In this document: one piece after another, positions 25,991-31,975 of the stretch
Layout: every line of letters begins with the position of its first letter
Numbering within the stretch: the first letter of the stretch is position 1
Assembly: GCA_036733925.1 (NCBI GenBank)
Contig: DAIMZO010000001.1
Span: 31,605-95,604, forward strand
Direction of reading: 5' to 3'
DNA: 64,000 nucleotides
From: Selenomonadaceae bacterium
GTDB taxonomy: Bacteria; Bacillota; Negativicutes; Selenomonadales; Selenomonadaceae
The notes under the pieces: model-generated
Databases searched by the model: none
The model's input: the letters and a program-made list of their open reading frames with translations, nothing else
Told to the model about the DNA's origin: nothing
Program-made: the position numbers and the translations under genes

Positions 25991-26833
25991 ATGAAACATC
26001 TGATTATCGTTCGTGGCGGCGGAGAACTCGCGACGGGTGTGATTCACTGCCTGCACCGCGCGGGTTTCCGCGTACTCGCACTCGAAAAGGCGCTGCCGAC
26101 GGCGACGCGCCGCCGCGTCGCGTTCTCGGACGCTATGTACCGCGGGAAGATGACGGTGGAGCGCGTGACCTGCTACAAGGCGGAGAGTCTCGAGGAGGCG
26201 AAGAAGCGCCTGAAGAATGGCGACGTCGTGATGCTCGACGATCCGGCAGGCAAATGCATCGAGAAGCTTTCGCCTGCCGTCGTCATCGACGCGATCACCG
26301 GCAAACATAACTATGGCACGAACCGGGCCATGGCGCCGCATACGATTGCGCTCGGCGCGGGGTTCTGCGCGGGCCGCGATGTCGACACGGTCGTTGAGAT
26401 CGCACGCGGGCACAACCTCGGCCGCCTGATCTACGAGGGCTACAGCGCGAAGGACGACCGCAGCAACGGCTATGTCGGCGTGGATCGCAATATCGAGCAT
26501 CTCGTTTTCGCGCCGGTTGGCGGGACGGTCGATGTACTCCGCACGATTTCCCAGTTCGTCAAGAAAGGGGAGTCCATCGCGCATATCCATGGCGAGGACG
26601 GCAGCATCGTCGAGATCCGGGCTACGATAGACGGCGTCCTGCGCGGCGCGGTGCACAGCGGCAGCGAGGCCGAGAAGGGACAGCGCATCGCGGATATCCA
26701 CCCGACGATGGGGCAGGAAGAGTGTTTCACGATTTCGGATAAGGCGCGCTGCATCGGCGGCAGCGTGCTCGAGGACGTCATGGCGTGGTGGCATGCGAGC
26801 CATCACCGCCGCGGCTTCCTCTCGCGCCTGTGA
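25991..26833 (+). CDS. yqeB: YqeB/EF2563-family selenium-dependent molybdenum hydroxylase accessory protein
   Basis: MKHLIIVRGGGELATGVIHCLHRAGF N-terminus is typical of the YqeB family. ATG 25991 follows AGAGAGG. Confidence 0.75.
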   Translation: MKHLIIVRGGGELATGVIHCLHRAGFRVLALEKALPTATRRRVAFSDAMYRGKMTVERVTCYKAESLEEAKKRLKNGDVVMLDDPAGKCIEKLSPAVVIDAITGKHNYGTNRAMAPHTIALGAGFCAGRDVDTVVEIARGHNLGRLIYEGYSAKDDRSNGYVGVDRNIEHLVFAPVGGTVDVLRTISQFVKKGESIAHIHGEDGSIVEIRATIDGVLRGAVHSGSEAEKGQRIADIHPTMGQEECFTISDKARCIGGSVLEDVMAWWHASHHRRGFLSRL

Positions 26834-27516
26834 GCGCGGGGAAGGGCAGCATAGCAGAGGCTTTGCTGTCCTTTTTATTTCCGCCGCACTGCCCGCACTG
26901 CCATGCCTATGTGGAAAAGCGCGGGGACTGGTGCCCGGAATGCCTTGCAGAGACCGCGCATTTCACGCTCTACCCGGGCTTCGGGAGCGTCGCGCGTGCC
27001 TGTTCGTTCGGCGCGTACCGGGGTGGCCTGCGTGACCTGATCCGCGGCCTGAAATACCAGCGGAAGGAGAGCGTGCTGCCGTATATCGGGGCAGTGCTGC
27101 ATTTCGTGTCGGAGGGCGGGCAGCGGGCGATGCTCAAGGATTTCCTGCTCCCCGGAATCCTCGCCGTGCCCGTCCCGCTTATCGAAAAGCGGCGCAAAGA
27201 GCGCGGCTTCAACCAGACGGAGCGCATCTTCGCGGTTTGCAAGCAGAAAACGGCATACGAGATGCACCAGGCCCTCATGCGGACACGGGAGACGCGGCCG
27301 ATGTACGGCCTCGGGCGCAGCGCGCGCCGCGAGAATCTGCGCGGGGCCTTCGCGCTTGCGGATGGGGCAGCGGCAGAGGAGCTCCGCGGACGCCGCATCC
27401 TGCTGCTCGACGACATCCTGACGACGGGAGCGACGCTCGACGCCTGTGCTTCCGTGCTGCGCAGGGCGGGAGCCAGCGAGGTTCTCGGTATGGTGCTCGC
27501 GAGCGACCATCGATGA
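26785..27516 (+). CDS. comF: ComF-family protein (phosphoribosyltransferase domain)
   Basis: Zinc-finger-like CPHC...CPEC N-terminus and ILLLDDILTTGATL PRTase motif. GTG 26785 follows GAGGA. GTG 26830 is an alternative start. Confidence 0.8.
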   Translation: MVACEPSPPRLPLAPVSAGKGSIAEALLSFLFPPHCPHCHAYVEKRGDWCPECLAETAHFTLYPGFGSVARACSFGAYRGGLRDLIRGLKYQRKESVLPYIGAVLHFVSEGGQRAMLKDFLLPGILAVPVPLIEKRRKERGFNQTERIFAVCKQKTAYEMHQALMRTRETRPMYGLGRSARRENLRGAFALADGAAAEELRGRRILLLDDILTTGATLDACASVLRRAGASEVLGMVLASDHR

Positions 27517-27612
27517 GTCCGATAAACTAATGTTATTTTTTTATAAAAATTCTATTGACAATGAATTTCAATTGCTATAAAATAAGAGGATAAGAAGGGA
27601 GGATGAAGTATT

Positions 27613-27819
27613 ATGTTTCAGAAAACGGATTTTTGGATTGGTCTCGCAGTAGGTGCCGTTGCCGGTATCTTCGGCTATCGCTTCATGCAGGAGCGCGAGC
27701 AGCAGATGGCAGCACTCCAGCAGGGCGCACCGACGGAGGATGTTCCGGTTGCTGAGCTGCAGCGTCAGAAGGAAGAACTTGAGGATCTGATCGCTGCACA
27801 GGAAGCTAAGCAGAAATAA
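27613..27819 (+). CDS. small single-TM protein with coiled-coil tail (function unknown)
   Basis: 68 aa. GGGAGGA RBS, hydrophobic WIGLAVGAVAGIFGY segment, own terminator downstream. Confidence 0.6.
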   Translation: MFQKTDFWIGLAVGAVAGIFGYRFMQEREQQMAALQQGAPTEDVPVAELQRQKEELEDLIAAQEAKQK

Positions 27820-27855
27820 GTTCATCGGTTTTTCAAGCTGCGATGAAGCGGGGGA

Positions 27856-27885
27856 GGGAACTGCACAAGGGCAGTTCCCTTTTCT
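27856..27885 (+). terminator. rho-independent terminator
   Basis: GGGAACTGC-acaagg-GCAGTTCCC followed by TTTTC. Confidence 0.75.
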
Positions 27886-27909
27886 TGTAGCAAGTCAGGG
27901 GGGGATGGC

Positions 27910-28209
27910 GTGAGCCTTTTCGATAGTTTGCAGATACCGACGAATCAGCTGGATCTGTTTATCCGTTCAGTGAAGATTTCGTCGTATATCCCGGGGCGCG
28001 TGCGCCTGTACAGCAAGAAGCTCATCGGGAACGCGGACCTCGAACGGCAGATCCAGGAACAGCTCGGCGCGTTCGTGGAGATCGACGCGGTGAAGACGAA
28101 TACGGTGACGGGATCGATCCTGATCCTGTATACGCCGGCAATCTTGCAGCGGAATGCGGAACTGCGCAAAGTGGAGCAATATATCATGACGCATGTCAAG
28201 AAGCGTTGA
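27910..28209 (+). CDS. HMA2-like (heavy-metal-associated-like) domain protein
   Basis: 99 aa, GTG start after a G-rich RBS. IPGRVRLYS...VTGSILILYTP pattern is shared with the next ORF and the ATPase N-terminus. Confidence 0.65.
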   Translation: MSLFDSLQIPTNQLDLFIRSVKISSYIPGRVRLYSKKLIGNADLERQIQEQLGAFVEIDAVKTNTVTGSILILYTPAILQRNAELRKVEQYIMTHVKKR

Positions 28210-28240
28210 CATCGTTCAGTTTTTTCAGAGGAGGCACAAG

Positions 28241-28888
28241 ATGTCCTATGTATCGGGATTCATGATGGGGGCGGCCATCGGCAAGGGGCTCCGTCAGATG
28301 TTTGCCGGCGCGCCGGCGAGGACGGAACAGGCAGGAAGGAAGGCGCTGGCTGCAGGGAAACGCACGGTGAAAAGCGGCGTGCAGAAAGGCGTGCAGAAGC
28401 TCGCGGGCGAAAAGGCGCTGCAGCTCGTCGCGAGCCTGCCGGGCCGCCGCCGCTACCGTGCGAAGGCGATTTCGCCGGAGCTCGCCATCCTGCTCGAGGT
28501 CAAGCTCGGAGAGCTCGGCTATATCAAGACGGTGTCCGTCAGCGCAACGACGGGCAGTATCCTGCTGACGTTCGACCCGTCGGCCGCGGATCGCGTAGAC
28601 CGGCTCGCGTTCTGGCTCGAGATCAATATCTTCTCGGCGGTGCGGTCAGGGAATTTCCTGGACGAGCGCCATGCGGGGGCTGTCACGCGCAGCATCCGGC
28701 ATTCTGCGCGGAACCTGTCGTCGTGGATGAAGGATCACACAGGTGGCACGCTTGACCTGTCGGCCCTTGCGGCGGTGATCTTCATGATCCGCGGTATGCG
28801 GAAAATGCTTATGTATAATCAGAACCCATCGGGCCCGCAGATGCTCTGGTGGGCGTTGTCGTTGCTGAGAGGATGGCGAACCGTATGA
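28241..28888 (+). CDS. HMA2-like domain protein with C-terminal membrane segment
   Basis: LPGRRRYRAK...TTGSILLTFDP repeats the motif of the previous ORF. Has a hydrophobic C-terminus. GAGGAGG RBS before ATG 28241. Confidence 0.65.
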   Translation: MSYVSGFMMGAAIGKGLRQMFAGAPARTEQAGRKALAAGKRTVKSGVQKGVQKLAGEKALQLVASLPGRRRYRAKAISPELAILLEVKLGELGYIKTVSVSATTGSILLTFDPSAADRVDRLAFWLEINIFSAVRSGNFLDERHAGAVTRSIRHSARNLSSWMKDHTGGTLDLSALAAVIFMIRGMRKMLMYNQNPSGPQMLWWALSLLRGWRTV

Positions 28889-30984
28889 AATACGGAACTT
28901 GCTGCATGAATCTGGGCCTCGCCCTGCCACGCGAGGAGCGGGCGAGGATGGCGGCGGAGATCCGCCGCTTCCGCTCGGTAAAGGCGGTGTCGGTCGAGGA
29001 AAGGCGCGTGCGCATCTGGTACGTTGGCGCATTGCCCATCGAGCGTATCCGCTCCCTGGTCCTCGCGGATTTGCACCGCGTCAAAGAGGCGTCGGTGACG
29101 CCGGCGGAGCGCCTTGCGGAATACCGGCGCGACGCGCTGGTCTCGCTCGCGGTATTCGCGGGCATGCAGATCGTGAAGCGCGCCGCGCCGCAGCTTTTCG
29201 TCGGGACGAAGATCCTGCGCTCGGCGGTCACGCTGGCCATCGCGCGCAAATTCATCCATAACGGCGTGCACGGCATGATTGCGGACCGCCAGCCGAATGC
29301 AGACACGCTGACGGCGACGGCGGTCATCGCGTCGGTGCTCGCGGGCAAGCCGGAGTCGAGCCTGACGCTCCTGACGCTGAGCAACGGCGCGGAGATGCTG
29401 ACGAGCTACGCCGCGGAACGCGCGCGCACGCAGATTTCCGGCCTGCTGTCGCTCGATCAGCGCTTCGTCTGGCTCGTCGGGCCGGACGGCGTCGAGCGGA
29501 AGGTACCGGTCGAGCAGGTCAAGGCGGGCGATACGATTTCGGCGCATACCGGCGAGAAGATTGTCGTCGATGGCCGCGTGCGCTCGGGCGACGCCGCCAT
29601 CAATCAGGCGTCCATCACGGGCGAGTCGAACCCCGCGATGAAGCAGAAGGGTTCGCCCGTCTACGCCGGCTCGGTCGTCGAGGCCGGCGAGCTCGTGATC
29701 CGCGTCGAGAAGGTCGGCAAGGATACGAGCCTCGCGCATATCGTGCACCTCGTCGAAGAGGCGCAGAACCGCAAGGCGCCGGTGCAGAATTTCGCGGATC
29801 AGATGGCGAACTTCCTCGTGCCGGTCTCGTTCATCGCGGCGGCTATCGTCTACGGCGCGACGCGCGACTGGCAGCGCGTGCTGAACCTGCTGTTCATCGA
29901 TTTTTCTTGCGGGCTGAAGCTCTCGACGGCGACGGCAATCTCGGCGGCGATCTCGGCGGCGGCAAAGCGCGGCATCCTCGTCAAGGGCGGCAACTACATC
30001 GAGGCGCTCGCCGAGACGGATACGGTCGTCCTCGACAAGACGGGGACGCTGACCATCGGTATCCCGCAAATCTCGTTCATCAAGACGGCGAAGGGCGTCG
30101 ACGAGAAGGAGATGATCCTGCTTGCAGCGTCGGCGGAGGAGCACTCCGTGCATCCGCTCGCCGTGGCCATCCAGAAATACGTCAAGGAAAAGGATTGGCA
30201 GGTGCCGCAGCATCTCTCGTCGAAGACGGTGGTCGCGCGCGGCATGCTCGCCGAGGTGCCGGACTTCGAAGGCTATTCCGGCGGCACAATCCGCGTCGGC
30301 TCGAAGAAATTCCTGCGTGAGAACGGCGTGAAGGATGAGGAAGCGCTCGACGCCGAGCTCGCGGGCAAGAACCTCCTGTACGTCGCCCGTGACCAGAAAC
30401 TGCTCGGCGTCATCGGCATCGAGGATCCGATCCGCCCGAACATGAAGAAGACCTTGAACCAGATGCGCCGCCATGGCATCGACGAGATCGTCATGCTGAC
30501 CGGGGACTCGAAGGCCGTCGCGGCGGAAGTCGCGCGCGATATGGATATCGATTCGTACTGCGCGGAGATCCTGCCGGAGGATAAGTCCAGCTATGTCAAC
30601 AAGCTCAAGCAGGGCGGCACGGTCATGATGGTCGGCGACGGCGTCAACGACGCGCCGGCGCTCGCGTTCGCGGATGTCGGCGTCTCGCTCGGCGGCCGCC
30701 AGACCGATATCGCGGCGGATTCCGCGGCGGTCACGATTCATACGGAGGATCCGGAGAAGCTTATGGAGGCGCTGGAACTCGGCCGCCGTACGATGCGGCT
30801 GGTGCATCAGAACTTCCGCGCGACGATCCTCGTGAACTCCGCCGCGATGATGCTCGGCGCGCTCGGGCGCATCAATCCGCTCTGGGCCGCGGTCATCCAC
30901 AACACGGCGACGCTTGCCGTCGTGCTGAACAGCTGCCGCATCCTGCGCACGCCGCGGCGCGGTTTCGCGCATCGGCGGGTCTGA
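28885..30984 (+). CDS. P1B-type (heavy-metal) P-type ATPase with non-canonical SCG transmembrane motif
   Basis: DKTGTLT (30034-30048), TGDS and GDGVNDAPAL motifs are present. The position of the CPC/CPx motif reads FSCGLKLSTA (SCG at 29905-29913). ATGA-coupled start at 28885. Confidence 0.9.
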   Translation: MKYGTCCMNLGLALPREERARMAAEIRRFRSVKAVSVEERRVRIWYVGALPIERIRSLVLADLHRVKEASVTPAERLAEYRRDALVSLAVFAGMQIVKRAAPQLFVGTKILRSAVTLAIARKFIHNGVHGMIADRQPNADTLTATAVIASVLAGKPESSLTLLTLSNGAEMLTSYAAERARTQISGLLSLDQRFVWLVGPDGVERKVPVEQVKAGDTISAHTGEKIVVDGRVRSGDAAINQASITGESNPAMKQKGSPVYAGSVVEAGELVIRVEKVGKDTSLAHIVHLVEEAQNRKAPVQNFADQMANFLVPVSFIAAAIVYGATRDWQRVLNLLFIDFSCGLKLSTATAISAAISAAAKRGILVKGGNYIEALAETDTVVLDKTGTLTIGIPQISFIKTAKGVDEKEMILLAASAEEHSVHPLAVAIQKYVKEKDWQVPQHLSSKTVVARGMLAEVPDFEGYSGGTIRVGSKKFLRENGVKDEEALDAELAGKNLLYVARDQKLLGVIGIEDPIRPNMKKTLNQMRRHGIDEIVMLTGDSKAVAAEVARDMDIDSYCAEILPEDKSSYVNKLKQGGTVMMVGDGVNDAPALAFADVGVSLGGRQTDIAADSAAVTIHTEDPEKLMEALELGRRTMRLVHQNFRATILVNSAAMMLGALGRINPLWAAVIHNTATLAVVLNSCRILRTPRRGFAHRRV

Positions 30985-31140
30985 TCCGGATCTCCTTTTT
31001 TGTCGTCGATTCCGTCGCGGGAAAAAAGGAAATCCGCGGTTCCCTGTCGAATCTTAACGGCATGAGAAGATGCGAGGGGAAATCCCCGAATTTCTGCAGG
31101 CCGCTCATTGGCGCGGCCCCGATGATGGAGTGACTTGCTT

Positions 31141-31569
31141 ATGGCTGGGAAACTGAAGAACTGCCCGATCTGCGGCAAACTGTATATGGATACGGGCCTG
31201 CATGTCTGCAGGGACTGCTACGACAAGCGAGAGAAGATGGAGTCGGAGATCATCAATTTCGTGCGCGACAACCCGAACTCGACCGTGCCGGAAATCATCG
31301 ACGCGACCGGTGCCAGCGAGAAGCTCATCAAAGAGATGATCCGGCAGGGCCGCTTCATCCAGATTGGCGTGAAGATGACCTATCCGTGCAAGAAATGCGG
31401 CGCGCCAATCATGACGGGCGAGATCTGCAAGTCCTGCATGGCGGAAATGCAGAAAGATCTGCAGGCGCAGGCCGCGAAGATCACGGCGGCCAAGCAGGCG
31501 GAGAAAGAGCGTCGCCAGCGTGGCATGTATTCACTGCATGAAAACCGGAAAAGTAACCGGAAAAAGTAA
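31141..31569 (+). CDS. yvyF: flagellar-region zinc-ribbon protein (YvyF family)
   Basis: CPICGK...CRDC and CKKCG...CKSC Cys pairs. Sits immediately upstream of flgM as in Bacillus. Confidence 0.75.
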   Translation: MAGKLKNCPICGKLYMDTGLHVCRDCYDKREKMESEIINFVRDNPNSTVPEIIDATGASEKLIKEMIRQGRFIQIGVKMTYPCKKCGAPIMTGEICKSCMAEMQKDLQAQAAKITAAKQAEKERRQRGMYSLHENRKSNRKK

Positions 31570-31579
31570 CCGGAAAAGG
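31543..31579 (+). repeat. 12/13-nt tandem repeat (AACCGGAAAA(A)GT) x3 spanning the yvyF stop codon
   Basis: Copies at 31543-31554, 31555-31567 (one extra A) and 31568-31579. The TAA stop at 31567-31569 straddles the junction of copies 2 and 3. Confidence 0.8.
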
Positions 31580-31605
31580 AACTGAAAAAAAGGAACAAAA
31601 GAGAG

Positions 31606-31641
31606 AAAAAGGGCGCGAGGCTTAAGTCTTGCGCCCTTTTT
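31606..31641 (+). terminator. rho-independent terminator after yvyF
   Basis: AAAAAGGGCGCGAG-loop-CTTGCGCCCTTTTT. Confidence 0.7.
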
Positions 31642-31649
31642 CTCGATAC
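31623..31649 (+). promoter_or_regulatory. candidate sigma-28 (SigD/FliA) promoter for flgM operon: TAAG-N15-CTCGATAC
   Basis: Shares the GCTTAAGTCTT box with the flagellin promoter. The -10 matches 5 of 8 positions of GCCGATAA. Embedded in the descending arm of the yvyF terminator. Confidence 0.4.
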
Positions 31650-31693
31650 AGTTACTAGGAAAACGATTTATTTCTTTTAAGGTGGTGAGGGTT

Positions 31694-31975
31694 ATGACCA
31701 TCAATCATGGAATTCAGGCGGTATCGAGCGTCTACGCGAATACGCCGGTTTCGTCGGCCGCGCGCAAGACACCGGCGGCGAAGGCACGGGCGCAGGGCGA
31801 TGAATTCGTCGTGTCGAACGAGGCGAAGAGCTTCAGCAGCATGCTCGAGGAACTGCGGAACATGGATGAAGTCCGCGAGGATAAGGTCGCGGCGGTCACG
31901 CAGCAGATCGAGGCGGGAACATATTCGGTCTCGTCGGAAAATGTTGCGGCAAGCCTTTTACATGCGAGATTCTAA
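31694..31975 (+). CDS. flgM: anti-sigma-28 factor FlgM
   Basis: 93 aa. The C-terminal VREDKVAAVTQQIEAGTYSVSSENVAASLL is the FlgM signature. Confidence 0.85.
   Translation: MTINHGIQAVSSVYANTPVSSAARKTPAAKARAQGDEFVVSNEAKSFSSMLEELRNMDEVREDKVAAVTQQIEAGTYSVSSENVAASLLHARF

Follow-up and report, generated by a model that had tools for sequence, protein, structure and literature searches.

A putative Fur-controlled, ferrosome-like operon with a proline-less P1B-type ATPase in the Selenomonadaceae

The P1B-6 ATPases are the FezB pumps, which are recognised by the motifs D[Y/F]SCA and HNxxT in combination with an N-terminal R-rich motif and are encoded together with GxxxG proteins (FezA) and R-rich proteins (FezC and FezD) (bioRxiv 10.1101/2020.01.10.902569). 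FezB is required for ferrosomes, which are iron-storage organelles (bioRxiv 10.1101/2020.01.10.902569; PMC13463818). In Clostridioides difficile, ferrosomes form on iron limitation and are made constitutively by a fur mutant (PMC13463818). Pumps with the motifs D[Y/F][S/V/C/I/A]CG and HNxxT were coloured apart from FezB in Supplementary Table 1 of Grant et al. (bioRxiv 10.1101/2020.01.10.902569), in which the FezB of C. difficile reads DFSCALK. The distinct group contains Selenomonas ruminantium Z108 (Ga0066880_1297), Megamonas (M. hypermegale), Centipeda (C. periodontii) and Anaerovibrio, all with DFSCGLK and HNTAT, as well as Pelosinus, Sporomusa, Fusobacterium, Clostridium and Bacillus species. 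Beyond this listing we found no description of the gene clusters or function of the group, and a search of the literature for 'ferrosome' paired with Selenomonas, Fusobacterium or Bacillus returned nothing relevant. Here we describe an operon for such a pump in the genome of a Selenomonadaceae bacterium (assembly GCA_036733925.1, contig DAIMZO010000001.1, positions 31,605 to 95,604 of the forward strand). The whole stretch of 64,000 nucleotides that was analysed is referred to as the window.

From the observed gene content, family placement and conservation of the operon, and from its sequence links to Fur and Feo, we infer a Fur-controlled, ferrosome-like (fez-type) system for the sequestration of Fe(II), a reading to which we give an even chance and in which the metal substrate, the direction of the regulation and the compartment are predictions. 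FezB-type clusters consist of a P1B-6 pump, GxxxG proteins and R-rich proteins, and the presence of all three partner types in the operon supports the fez-like reading. The predicted transcription unit is made up of four genes behind one promoter, for a small protein, a CoBaHMA protein, a CoBaHMA-hairpin protein and the P1B pump. Its features are as follows.

27555..27583, + strand: strong sigma-70-type promoter, TTGACA-17-TAAAAT, with 11 of 12 consensus positions; the sole promoter-like site within 27300-31300
27556..27574, + strand: Fur-like operator over the -35 hexamer and the spacer, with a 7-1-7 match TGACAATGAATTTCA at 27556-27570 and the 13-mer TGAATTTCAATTG at 27562-27574
27613..27819, + strand: gene for a FezA-like small membrane protein of 68 amino acids, with an N-terminal hydrophobic helix of GxxxG repeats GLAVGAVAGIFG and a conserved acidic helix ELQRQKEELEDLIAAQE
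27848..27888, + strand: terminator-like hairpin and U-rich tail that separate the small gene from open reading frame 1 (ORF1) (-24.7 kcal/mol, z = -5.0)
27898..27904, + strand: G7 run in the ribosome-binding site of the first CoBaHMA gene (ORF1), seen by inspection of the sequence
27910..28209, + strand: ORF1, soluble CoBaHMA/HMA_2 protein of 99 amino acids with the R-rich PGRVRLY and no CxxC (Pfam PF19991, 52.6 bits)
28241..28888, + strand: ORF2, CoBaHMA/HMA_2 protein of 215 amino acids with a C-terminal helical hairpin PSGPQMLWWALSLLRGWR (Pfam PF19991, 83.4 bits)
28885..30984, + strand: P1B-type ATPase of 699 amino acids, of the D[F/Y]xCG/HNxxT clade (TIGR01525, motifs, trees and AlphaFold2 model)
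29896..29913, + strand: metal-site motif I-D-F-S-C-G in membrane helix M4, aligned to I-A-C-P-C-A of Legionella CopA
30898..30912, + strand: H-N-T-A-T motif in membrane helix M6, aligned to the M-A-L-S-S stretch of CopA
30977..31002, + strand: terminator-like hairpin at the operon end, after the pump, predicted from sequence

An earlier reading of the window by a model that ran no database searches (the original prediction) had described the pump and the two genes before it, and overlooked the fourth gene at 27613-27819, the promoter with its Fur-like box and the internal hairpin.

The last gene of the operon codes for a complete P1B ATPase, which scored 526.4 bits against TIGR01525, the P1B ATPase model (cut-off 346.25), and matched E1-E2_ATPase and Hydrolase in Pfam. 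All of the P-type catalytic motifs reported in the original prediction were located: DKTGT at 30034-30048, TGDS at 30499-30510 and GDGVNDAPAL, an instance of GDGxNDxP, at 30634-30663. TGES (29617-29628) and the HP dipeptide are also present. The AlphaFold2 model, with a predicted local distance difference test score (pLDDT) of 83.4, has the P1B fold with helices MA and MB, M1-M6 and the A, P and N domains, and its top structural matches were CopA, ZntA and ATP7B. Foldseek aligned 674 columns of the model to CopA 4bbj (E 2.8e-43). Two further P1B pumps are encoded in this genome (G000:C4:54751-56508 and G000:C31:11579-13222), one of which is CopA-like and groups with CopA of Citrobacter, Bacillus and Phocaeicola, while the other sits on a long branch within the Zn/Cd/Co-type group.

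In the metal site, the pump has SCG (29905-29913) where CPC is usual, without the proline, as had been noted from the letters alone. A HMMER alignment to Legionella CopA paired 'idfscglkls' with 'iacpcalgla', such that F-S-C takes the place of C-P-C: the Cys of the pump corresponds to the second Cys of CPC, Ser stands at the Pro position and Gly at the Ala of CPCA, and M4 contains no CPx or xPC motif. In the same alignment, the Asn of 'LVNS' paired with the Asn of 'IYNV' in CopA, and the His and last Thr of HNTAT with the Met and Ser of M-A-L-S-S. The CopA residues thus paired are the copper ligands N689, M717 and S721, and the motif residues of the pump therefore lie in the membrane metal site. 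SCG accordingly aligns inside the transmembrane metal site, and HNTAT was confirmed in the last membrane helix at 30898-30912, which also agrees with the HNxxT of P1B-6. The helix flexibility that is due to Pro in the CPC pumps probably comes here from the Gly that follows the Cys.

Both IDFSCG and HNTAT were present in all of the 120 closest homologues (78-100% identity, the named ones being from Mitsuokella and Selenomonas), indicating that the IDFSCG motif is real and under selection and not a sequencing error. An artefact or a decaying gene was considered and given next to no probability, the reading frame being intact, the catalytic motifs complete and the two motifs identical among these homologues. 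Across the clade, the D, C and G of M4 and the H, N and T of M6 are invariant, while S, V, C, I or A is found at the 'S' position of M4. Because of this variation, the true signature is D[F/Y]xCG rather than SCG.

We inferred trees with FastTree from 152 P1B pumps and with IQ-TREE (LG+C20) from 61. Pumps matched through generic P-type motifs in the scan of genome contigs served as outgroups only, except for three canonical fezB loci. The D[F/Y]xCG group was monophyletic in both trees (support 100) and was in both the sister (support 98-99) of a clade made up of FezB and a cysteine-less group; the next relatives were CtpC-like (CPC/HNxS[ST]) and FezH-like pumps. The same split between D[F/Y]xCG and FezB was seen in a survey of 150 representatives at 50% identity. 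Of the suggestion that the pump falls in or near P1B-6, the sister relationship bears out 'near'. The accompanying description of P1B-6 as an orphan class with a substrate yet to be found is outdated, as P1B-6 is FezB, the ferrosome pump. The cysteine-less group, the closest sister of canonical FezB, has DY(G/A/E)(T/S)G in M4 and (S/N)NGS in M6 (representatives P0185, P0207, P0213, P0219, P0237, P0240, P0266 and P0267, one of them from a Melainabacteria metagenome-assembled genome).

The pump was found in 85 of 121 sampled Selenomonadaceae genomes, representing 28 of 40 genera, and the D[F/Y]xCG lineage is also found in Pectinatus, Peptacetobacter, Fusobacterium, Clostridium and Bacillus. Gene order was compared in a sample of 20 Selenomonadaceae relatives with pump identities of 59-82%, and the order small protein, CoBaHMA, CoBaHMA-hairpin, pump was kept in 19-20 of these. 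The partner set is also seen outside the family: elsewhere in the phylum, D[F/Y]xCG pumps of 45-65% identity are preceded by CoBaHMA and CoBaHMA-hairpin genes, and the small protein has a homologue close by. At one locus (L133, G220:C12:28200-38600), a CPC/HNIST pump and a DYACG/HNATT pump are encoded about 1.8 kb apart in the same genome and are accompanied by genes for an HD-domain protein, for a protein of the CoBaHMA-hairpin type and for a small-protein homologue, an arrangement that resembles the larger two-pump fez clusters with FezH.

The small membrane protein is the best conserved partner of the pump, being present in 19 of the 20 relatives at 54-91% identity. Its hydrophobic region contains a GxxxG motif, as in the fez clusters, and a hidden Markov model (HMM) of the protein recovered its counterparts next to the D[F/Y]xCG pumps of distant genomes (E values of 4.5e-37, 2.8e-20 and 3.6e-15). 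Pfam gave only weak, sub-threshold matches, and none to the PacL family.

ORF1 and ORF2 both scored above the Pfam HMA_2 (PF19991) cut-off of 30, and neither contains CxxC, which confirms the two HMA2-like proteins that had been read from the sequence. Pfam HMA_2 corresponds to CoBaHMA, an HMA fold that lacks cysteines, has an additional strand at its N-terminus, carries a basic patch and sometimes precedes a helical hairpin (Gaschignard et al. 2024). Given their Pfam scores, basic signatures, extra beta-0 strand and lack of CxxC, the two proteins are members of this described CoBaHMA/R-rich family, and their PGRVRLY (ORF1) and PGRRRYR (ORF2) correspond to the R-rich, FezC- or FezD-like proteins of the fez clusters. 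Each of the 20 relatives has an orthologue of ORF1, and PGR.RL and GS.L are invariant among them. In the more distant Selenomonadaceae genera (L113, L115, L116, L117 and L118), the first CoBaHMA protein is longer, with 157-197 amino acids and an N-terminal extension that contains hydrophobic helices and a conserved H.WQYRKK motif missing from the 99-residue version in the window. ORF2 consists of an N-terminal Gly-rich helix, a variable linker, the PGRRRYR core and the conserved C-terminal hairpin, and its Pfam match spans profile positions 6-153. Its AlphaFold2 model has a core with pLDDT of about 97 and three C-terminal helices, and shows the extra beta-0 strand, with strands at residues 60-66 and 69-74 ahead of helix 1; Foldseek returned only weak HMA matches for this model (about E 1e-2). 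Among the best 120 of its 191 homologues, the named ones were all from Selenomonadaceae (Selenomonas and Mitsuokella).

The N-terminus of the pump was predicted to adopt a beta-alpha-beta-beta-alpha fold, with GTCCMN on strand beta-1 and 'RRVRIWY' on strand beta-3, at the place of 'GSILILY' in the upstream proteins. The HMMs of the two upstream proteins scored about 0 on this domain and Pfam HMA_2 did not match it; the ATPase does not carry the PGRxR motif that it had been said to share with them. The pump has lost the R-rich signature, which is kept on the detached proteins.

Several links connect the operon to iron. The exact 13-mer TGAATTTCAATTG occurs twice in the 1.97 Mb genome, and the other copy is located immediately upstream of feoA-feoB. 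The feoA-feoB promoter (G000:C12:52524-52560, outside the window) also contains a Fur-type box with 3 mismatches, TCATAATCATTGTAA. Fur-type matches with <=3 mismatches were present in the promoters of 12 of the 20 relatives, with 11 of these beating dinucleotide shuffles (p <= 0.035); the upstream sequences of the 20 relatives are mostly unalignable. In one relative genome, feoA-feoA-feoB (confirmed by Pfam) lies directly upstream of the module, and feoA/feoB or feoB adjoins it in two more, giving three in all. The genome contains three Fur-family genes. A search for classical ferritin in this genome found only a rubrerythrin, which is weak evidence of absence since the assembly is 88% complete; in genomes without ferritin, the D[F/Y]xCG module may be the main iron store. 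Elsewhere in the genome, a perfect 7-1-7 Fur box TGATAATGATTATCA is located upstream of an enolase gene (G000:C33:11777) and one with 2 mismatches upstream of a rubrerythrin-like gene (G000:C12:15541).

A hairpin and T-run comparable to 27848-27888 were present at the same position in 20 of 20 relatives, and an Rfam search of the leader and hairpin region gave no match. The internal hairpin is probably an attenuator, and the first gene is probably made in excess through partial termination at this site. The three genes of the original prediction had been described as translationally coupled. This agrees with the ATGA overlap of ORF2 and the ATPase at 28885-28888, the only overlap found, and does not extend to ORF1 and ORF2, which are 31 nt apart and therefore do not overlap. 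We placed the start of ORF2 at the ATG at 28241, behind GAGGAGG and 31 nt past the ORF1 stop, because its orthologues begin with MSYVSGFM and an identical product of 215 residues is present in a public protein collection. Likewise, the pump was taken to start at the ATG at 28885 (MKYG...), because its homologues begin with M(M/K)YG. The public gene call for the pump starts with MNLGL (692 amino acids; window 28849-28906), and the conservation of MKYG favours 28885 (699 amino acids).

The G7 run does lie inside the ribosome-binding site of ORF1, as had been pointed out, and a second assembly of the same DNA also has G7, although it is 100% identical over 7.3 kb and adds nothing independent. The relatives carry AGGAGG-type sites at this position, and no evidence was found that the run varies in length; phase variation at the run, which was also considered, found no support, and the run is no more than the form that the ribosome-binding site takes in this genome. 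The module is flanked by comFC (26785-27516) on one side and a yvyF-like zinc-ribbon gene followed by flgM and flgN on the other (window 26785-31975), a block that is contiguous in Bacillus subtilis. Neither comFC nor yvyF was found beside the module at any of about 31 loci in relatives, for which reason its position here looks lineage-specific.

If the operon serves in Fe(II) sequestration, Fur repression would lift at low iron, as for feoAB, and the ATPase would pump Fe(II) from the cytosol through a hard-ligand site composed of Asp and Cys (M4), Asn (M5) and His, Asn and Thr (M6). The iron would then enter a membrane-bound compartment that the small proteins may help to organise. A leaky terminator would allow the cell to make the small GxxxG protein in excess, and its acidic helix may dock on the basic CoBaHMA patch, as suggested by the precedent of PacL, which binds the R-rich domain of CtpC. 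Storage would fit better than detoxification, because the operator is in a repressor position and is common to an uptake system. We further propose, tentatively and at a little less than an even chance, that the D[F/Y]xCG clade builds a ferrosome-like iron store in Selenomonadaceae as well as in other Negativicutes, Clostridia, Bacilli and Fusobacteria.

Other observations weigh against such a role. The pump has DFSCG and not the D[Y/F]SCA of FezB, with Gly in 120 of 120 close homologues, and in the trees it is placed outside the FezB clade, contrary to the 'in' of the original placement. No experiments on any member of the D[F/Y]xCG clade were found in the literature searched, and the closest pump outside FezB that has been characterised, CtpC, exports Zn/Mn at the plasma membrane together with a small GxxG membrane partner. 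The HMM of the small protein scored weakly on the genes in the FezA position at two canonical fezB loci (16.3 bits at L137 and 11.1 bits at L008, in tiny databases). FezC binds haem through conserved histidines (PMC11334425); the C-terminal helices of ORF2 contain no conserved His across 21 orthologues, and ORF2 was therefore ruled out as a FezC-type cytochrome. The 7-1-7 Fur-type match in the window has 3 mismatches and is not significant within the window alone, and no Fur-type box consensus was found upstream of distant modules outside the Selenomonadaceae.

The same genes could form a plasma-membrane efflux platform of the CtpC/PacL 'effluxosome' type that exports a divalent metal (Fe, Mn, Zn or Co) without any internal compartment, in which the small GxxxG protein with its Glu/Ala-rich helix would scaffold and stabilise the pump via the CoBaHMA domains. 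This is the main alternative, and we regard it as rather unlikely. To our knowledge, all P1B pumps of established location and direction export metal from the cytosol. Once the FezB and D[F/Y]xCG clades are set aside, CtpC-like pumps with CPC/HNxS[ST] come next in relatedness, but the pump itself is nearer to FezB than to CtpC in the tree. The PacL proteins, small membrane proteins in which a GxxG motif is combined with EA repeats, bind the metal-binding domain of CtpC, which carries an R-rich motif (table of Grant et al.). The small protein of the window shares their layout, and the resemblance is one of layout only; it lies outside the PacL Pfam family. The position of the operator is that of a repressor and its 13-mer is common to the feoAB uptake system, pointing to induction at low iron, which would be odd for a detoxifying exporter, and feoAB adjoins the module in three genomes.

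A role in iron could also be mistaken altogether, with the pump handling another metal (for example Mn, Co, Ni or Zn) and the Fur and Feo links being incidental, which we consider improbable. The ligands Asp/Cys/His/Asn/Thr would suit borderline divalent ions other than iron as well, and with three Fur-family paralogues the box could belong to a Zur-, PerR- or Mur-like regulator. However, its TGA...TCA form is of the Fur type and not of the Zur or PerR type by the B. subtilis consensus sequences, and the 13-mer in common with the feoAB promoter and the adjacency to Feo point to iron.

While the clade as such was already listed without comment in the supplementary table of Grant et al., the anatomy of the four-gene unit in Selenomonadaceae, the conservation of its internal hairpin, its links by sequence to Fur and Feo, and the loss from the pump of an R-rich signature that detached proteins retain are new here. 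In experiments to date, ferrosomes have been connected with SCA-type FezB pumps only. If this lineage does store iron, membrane-bound iron organelles would extend to a second and much less studied lineage of pumps that is common among such anaerobes as live in the gut, rumen and mouth, the view of the iron economy of rumen, gut and oral anaerobes would change, and a natural comparison would be available for the residues that set metal selectivity in proline-less pumps. Were it an efflux platform instead, the CtpC/PacL system of mycobacteria would be joined to a much broader family. Both readings can be put to the test in culturable hosts such as Selenomonas ruminantium and Mitsuokella.

Compared with the fez clusters of Desulfovibrio magneticus, Shewanella putrefaciens, Rhodopseudomonas palustris and C. 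difficile, the operon has the same type of P1B pump with D[F/Y]xC in M4 and HNxxT in M6, the same association with a small GxxxG membrane protein and R-rich (CoBaHMA) proteins, similar links to Fur and Feo, and likewise an anaerobic host. It differs in that Gly replaces Ala after the Cys, in that the pump belongs to a sister clade rather than to FezB itself, in that the N-terminal domain of the pump lacks the R-rich signature, which sits on two separate proteins, and in that the histidines with which FezC binds haem are missing from the membrane-anchored CoBaHMA protein. The Shewanella fez operon gives rise to granules when it is expressed in E. coli. With the D[Y/F][S/V/C/I/A]CG group of Grant et al., the pump shares the motifs DFSCGLK and HNTAT as well as the taxa, and it is an orthologue of that group.

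The CtpC/PacL1 system of Mycobacterium tuberculosis likewise pairs a P1B pump with a small membrane protein encoded together with it: the pump is related to that of the window, reads HNxS[ST] in M6 and has an N-terminal domain that is R-rich and without CxxC, and its partner contains both a Gly motif and an acidic helix. Unlike the pump described here, CtpC keeps CPC and exports Zn/Mn across the plasma membrane; PacL belongs to another Pfam family, and stand-alone CoBaHMA proteins are missing from that system. With the CoBaHMA family (Gaschignard et al. 2024), including the CoBaHMA-DUF454-like hairpin proteins encoded beside calcyanin genes, the window proteins share the cysteine-less HMA fold, the beta-0 strand and the basic patch, and ORF2 also shares the layout of a CoBaHMA domain followed by a C-terminal helical hairpin. 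In the window, however, the domain is found beside a P1B pump with links to iron rather than at a locus for calcium carbonate biomineralisation.

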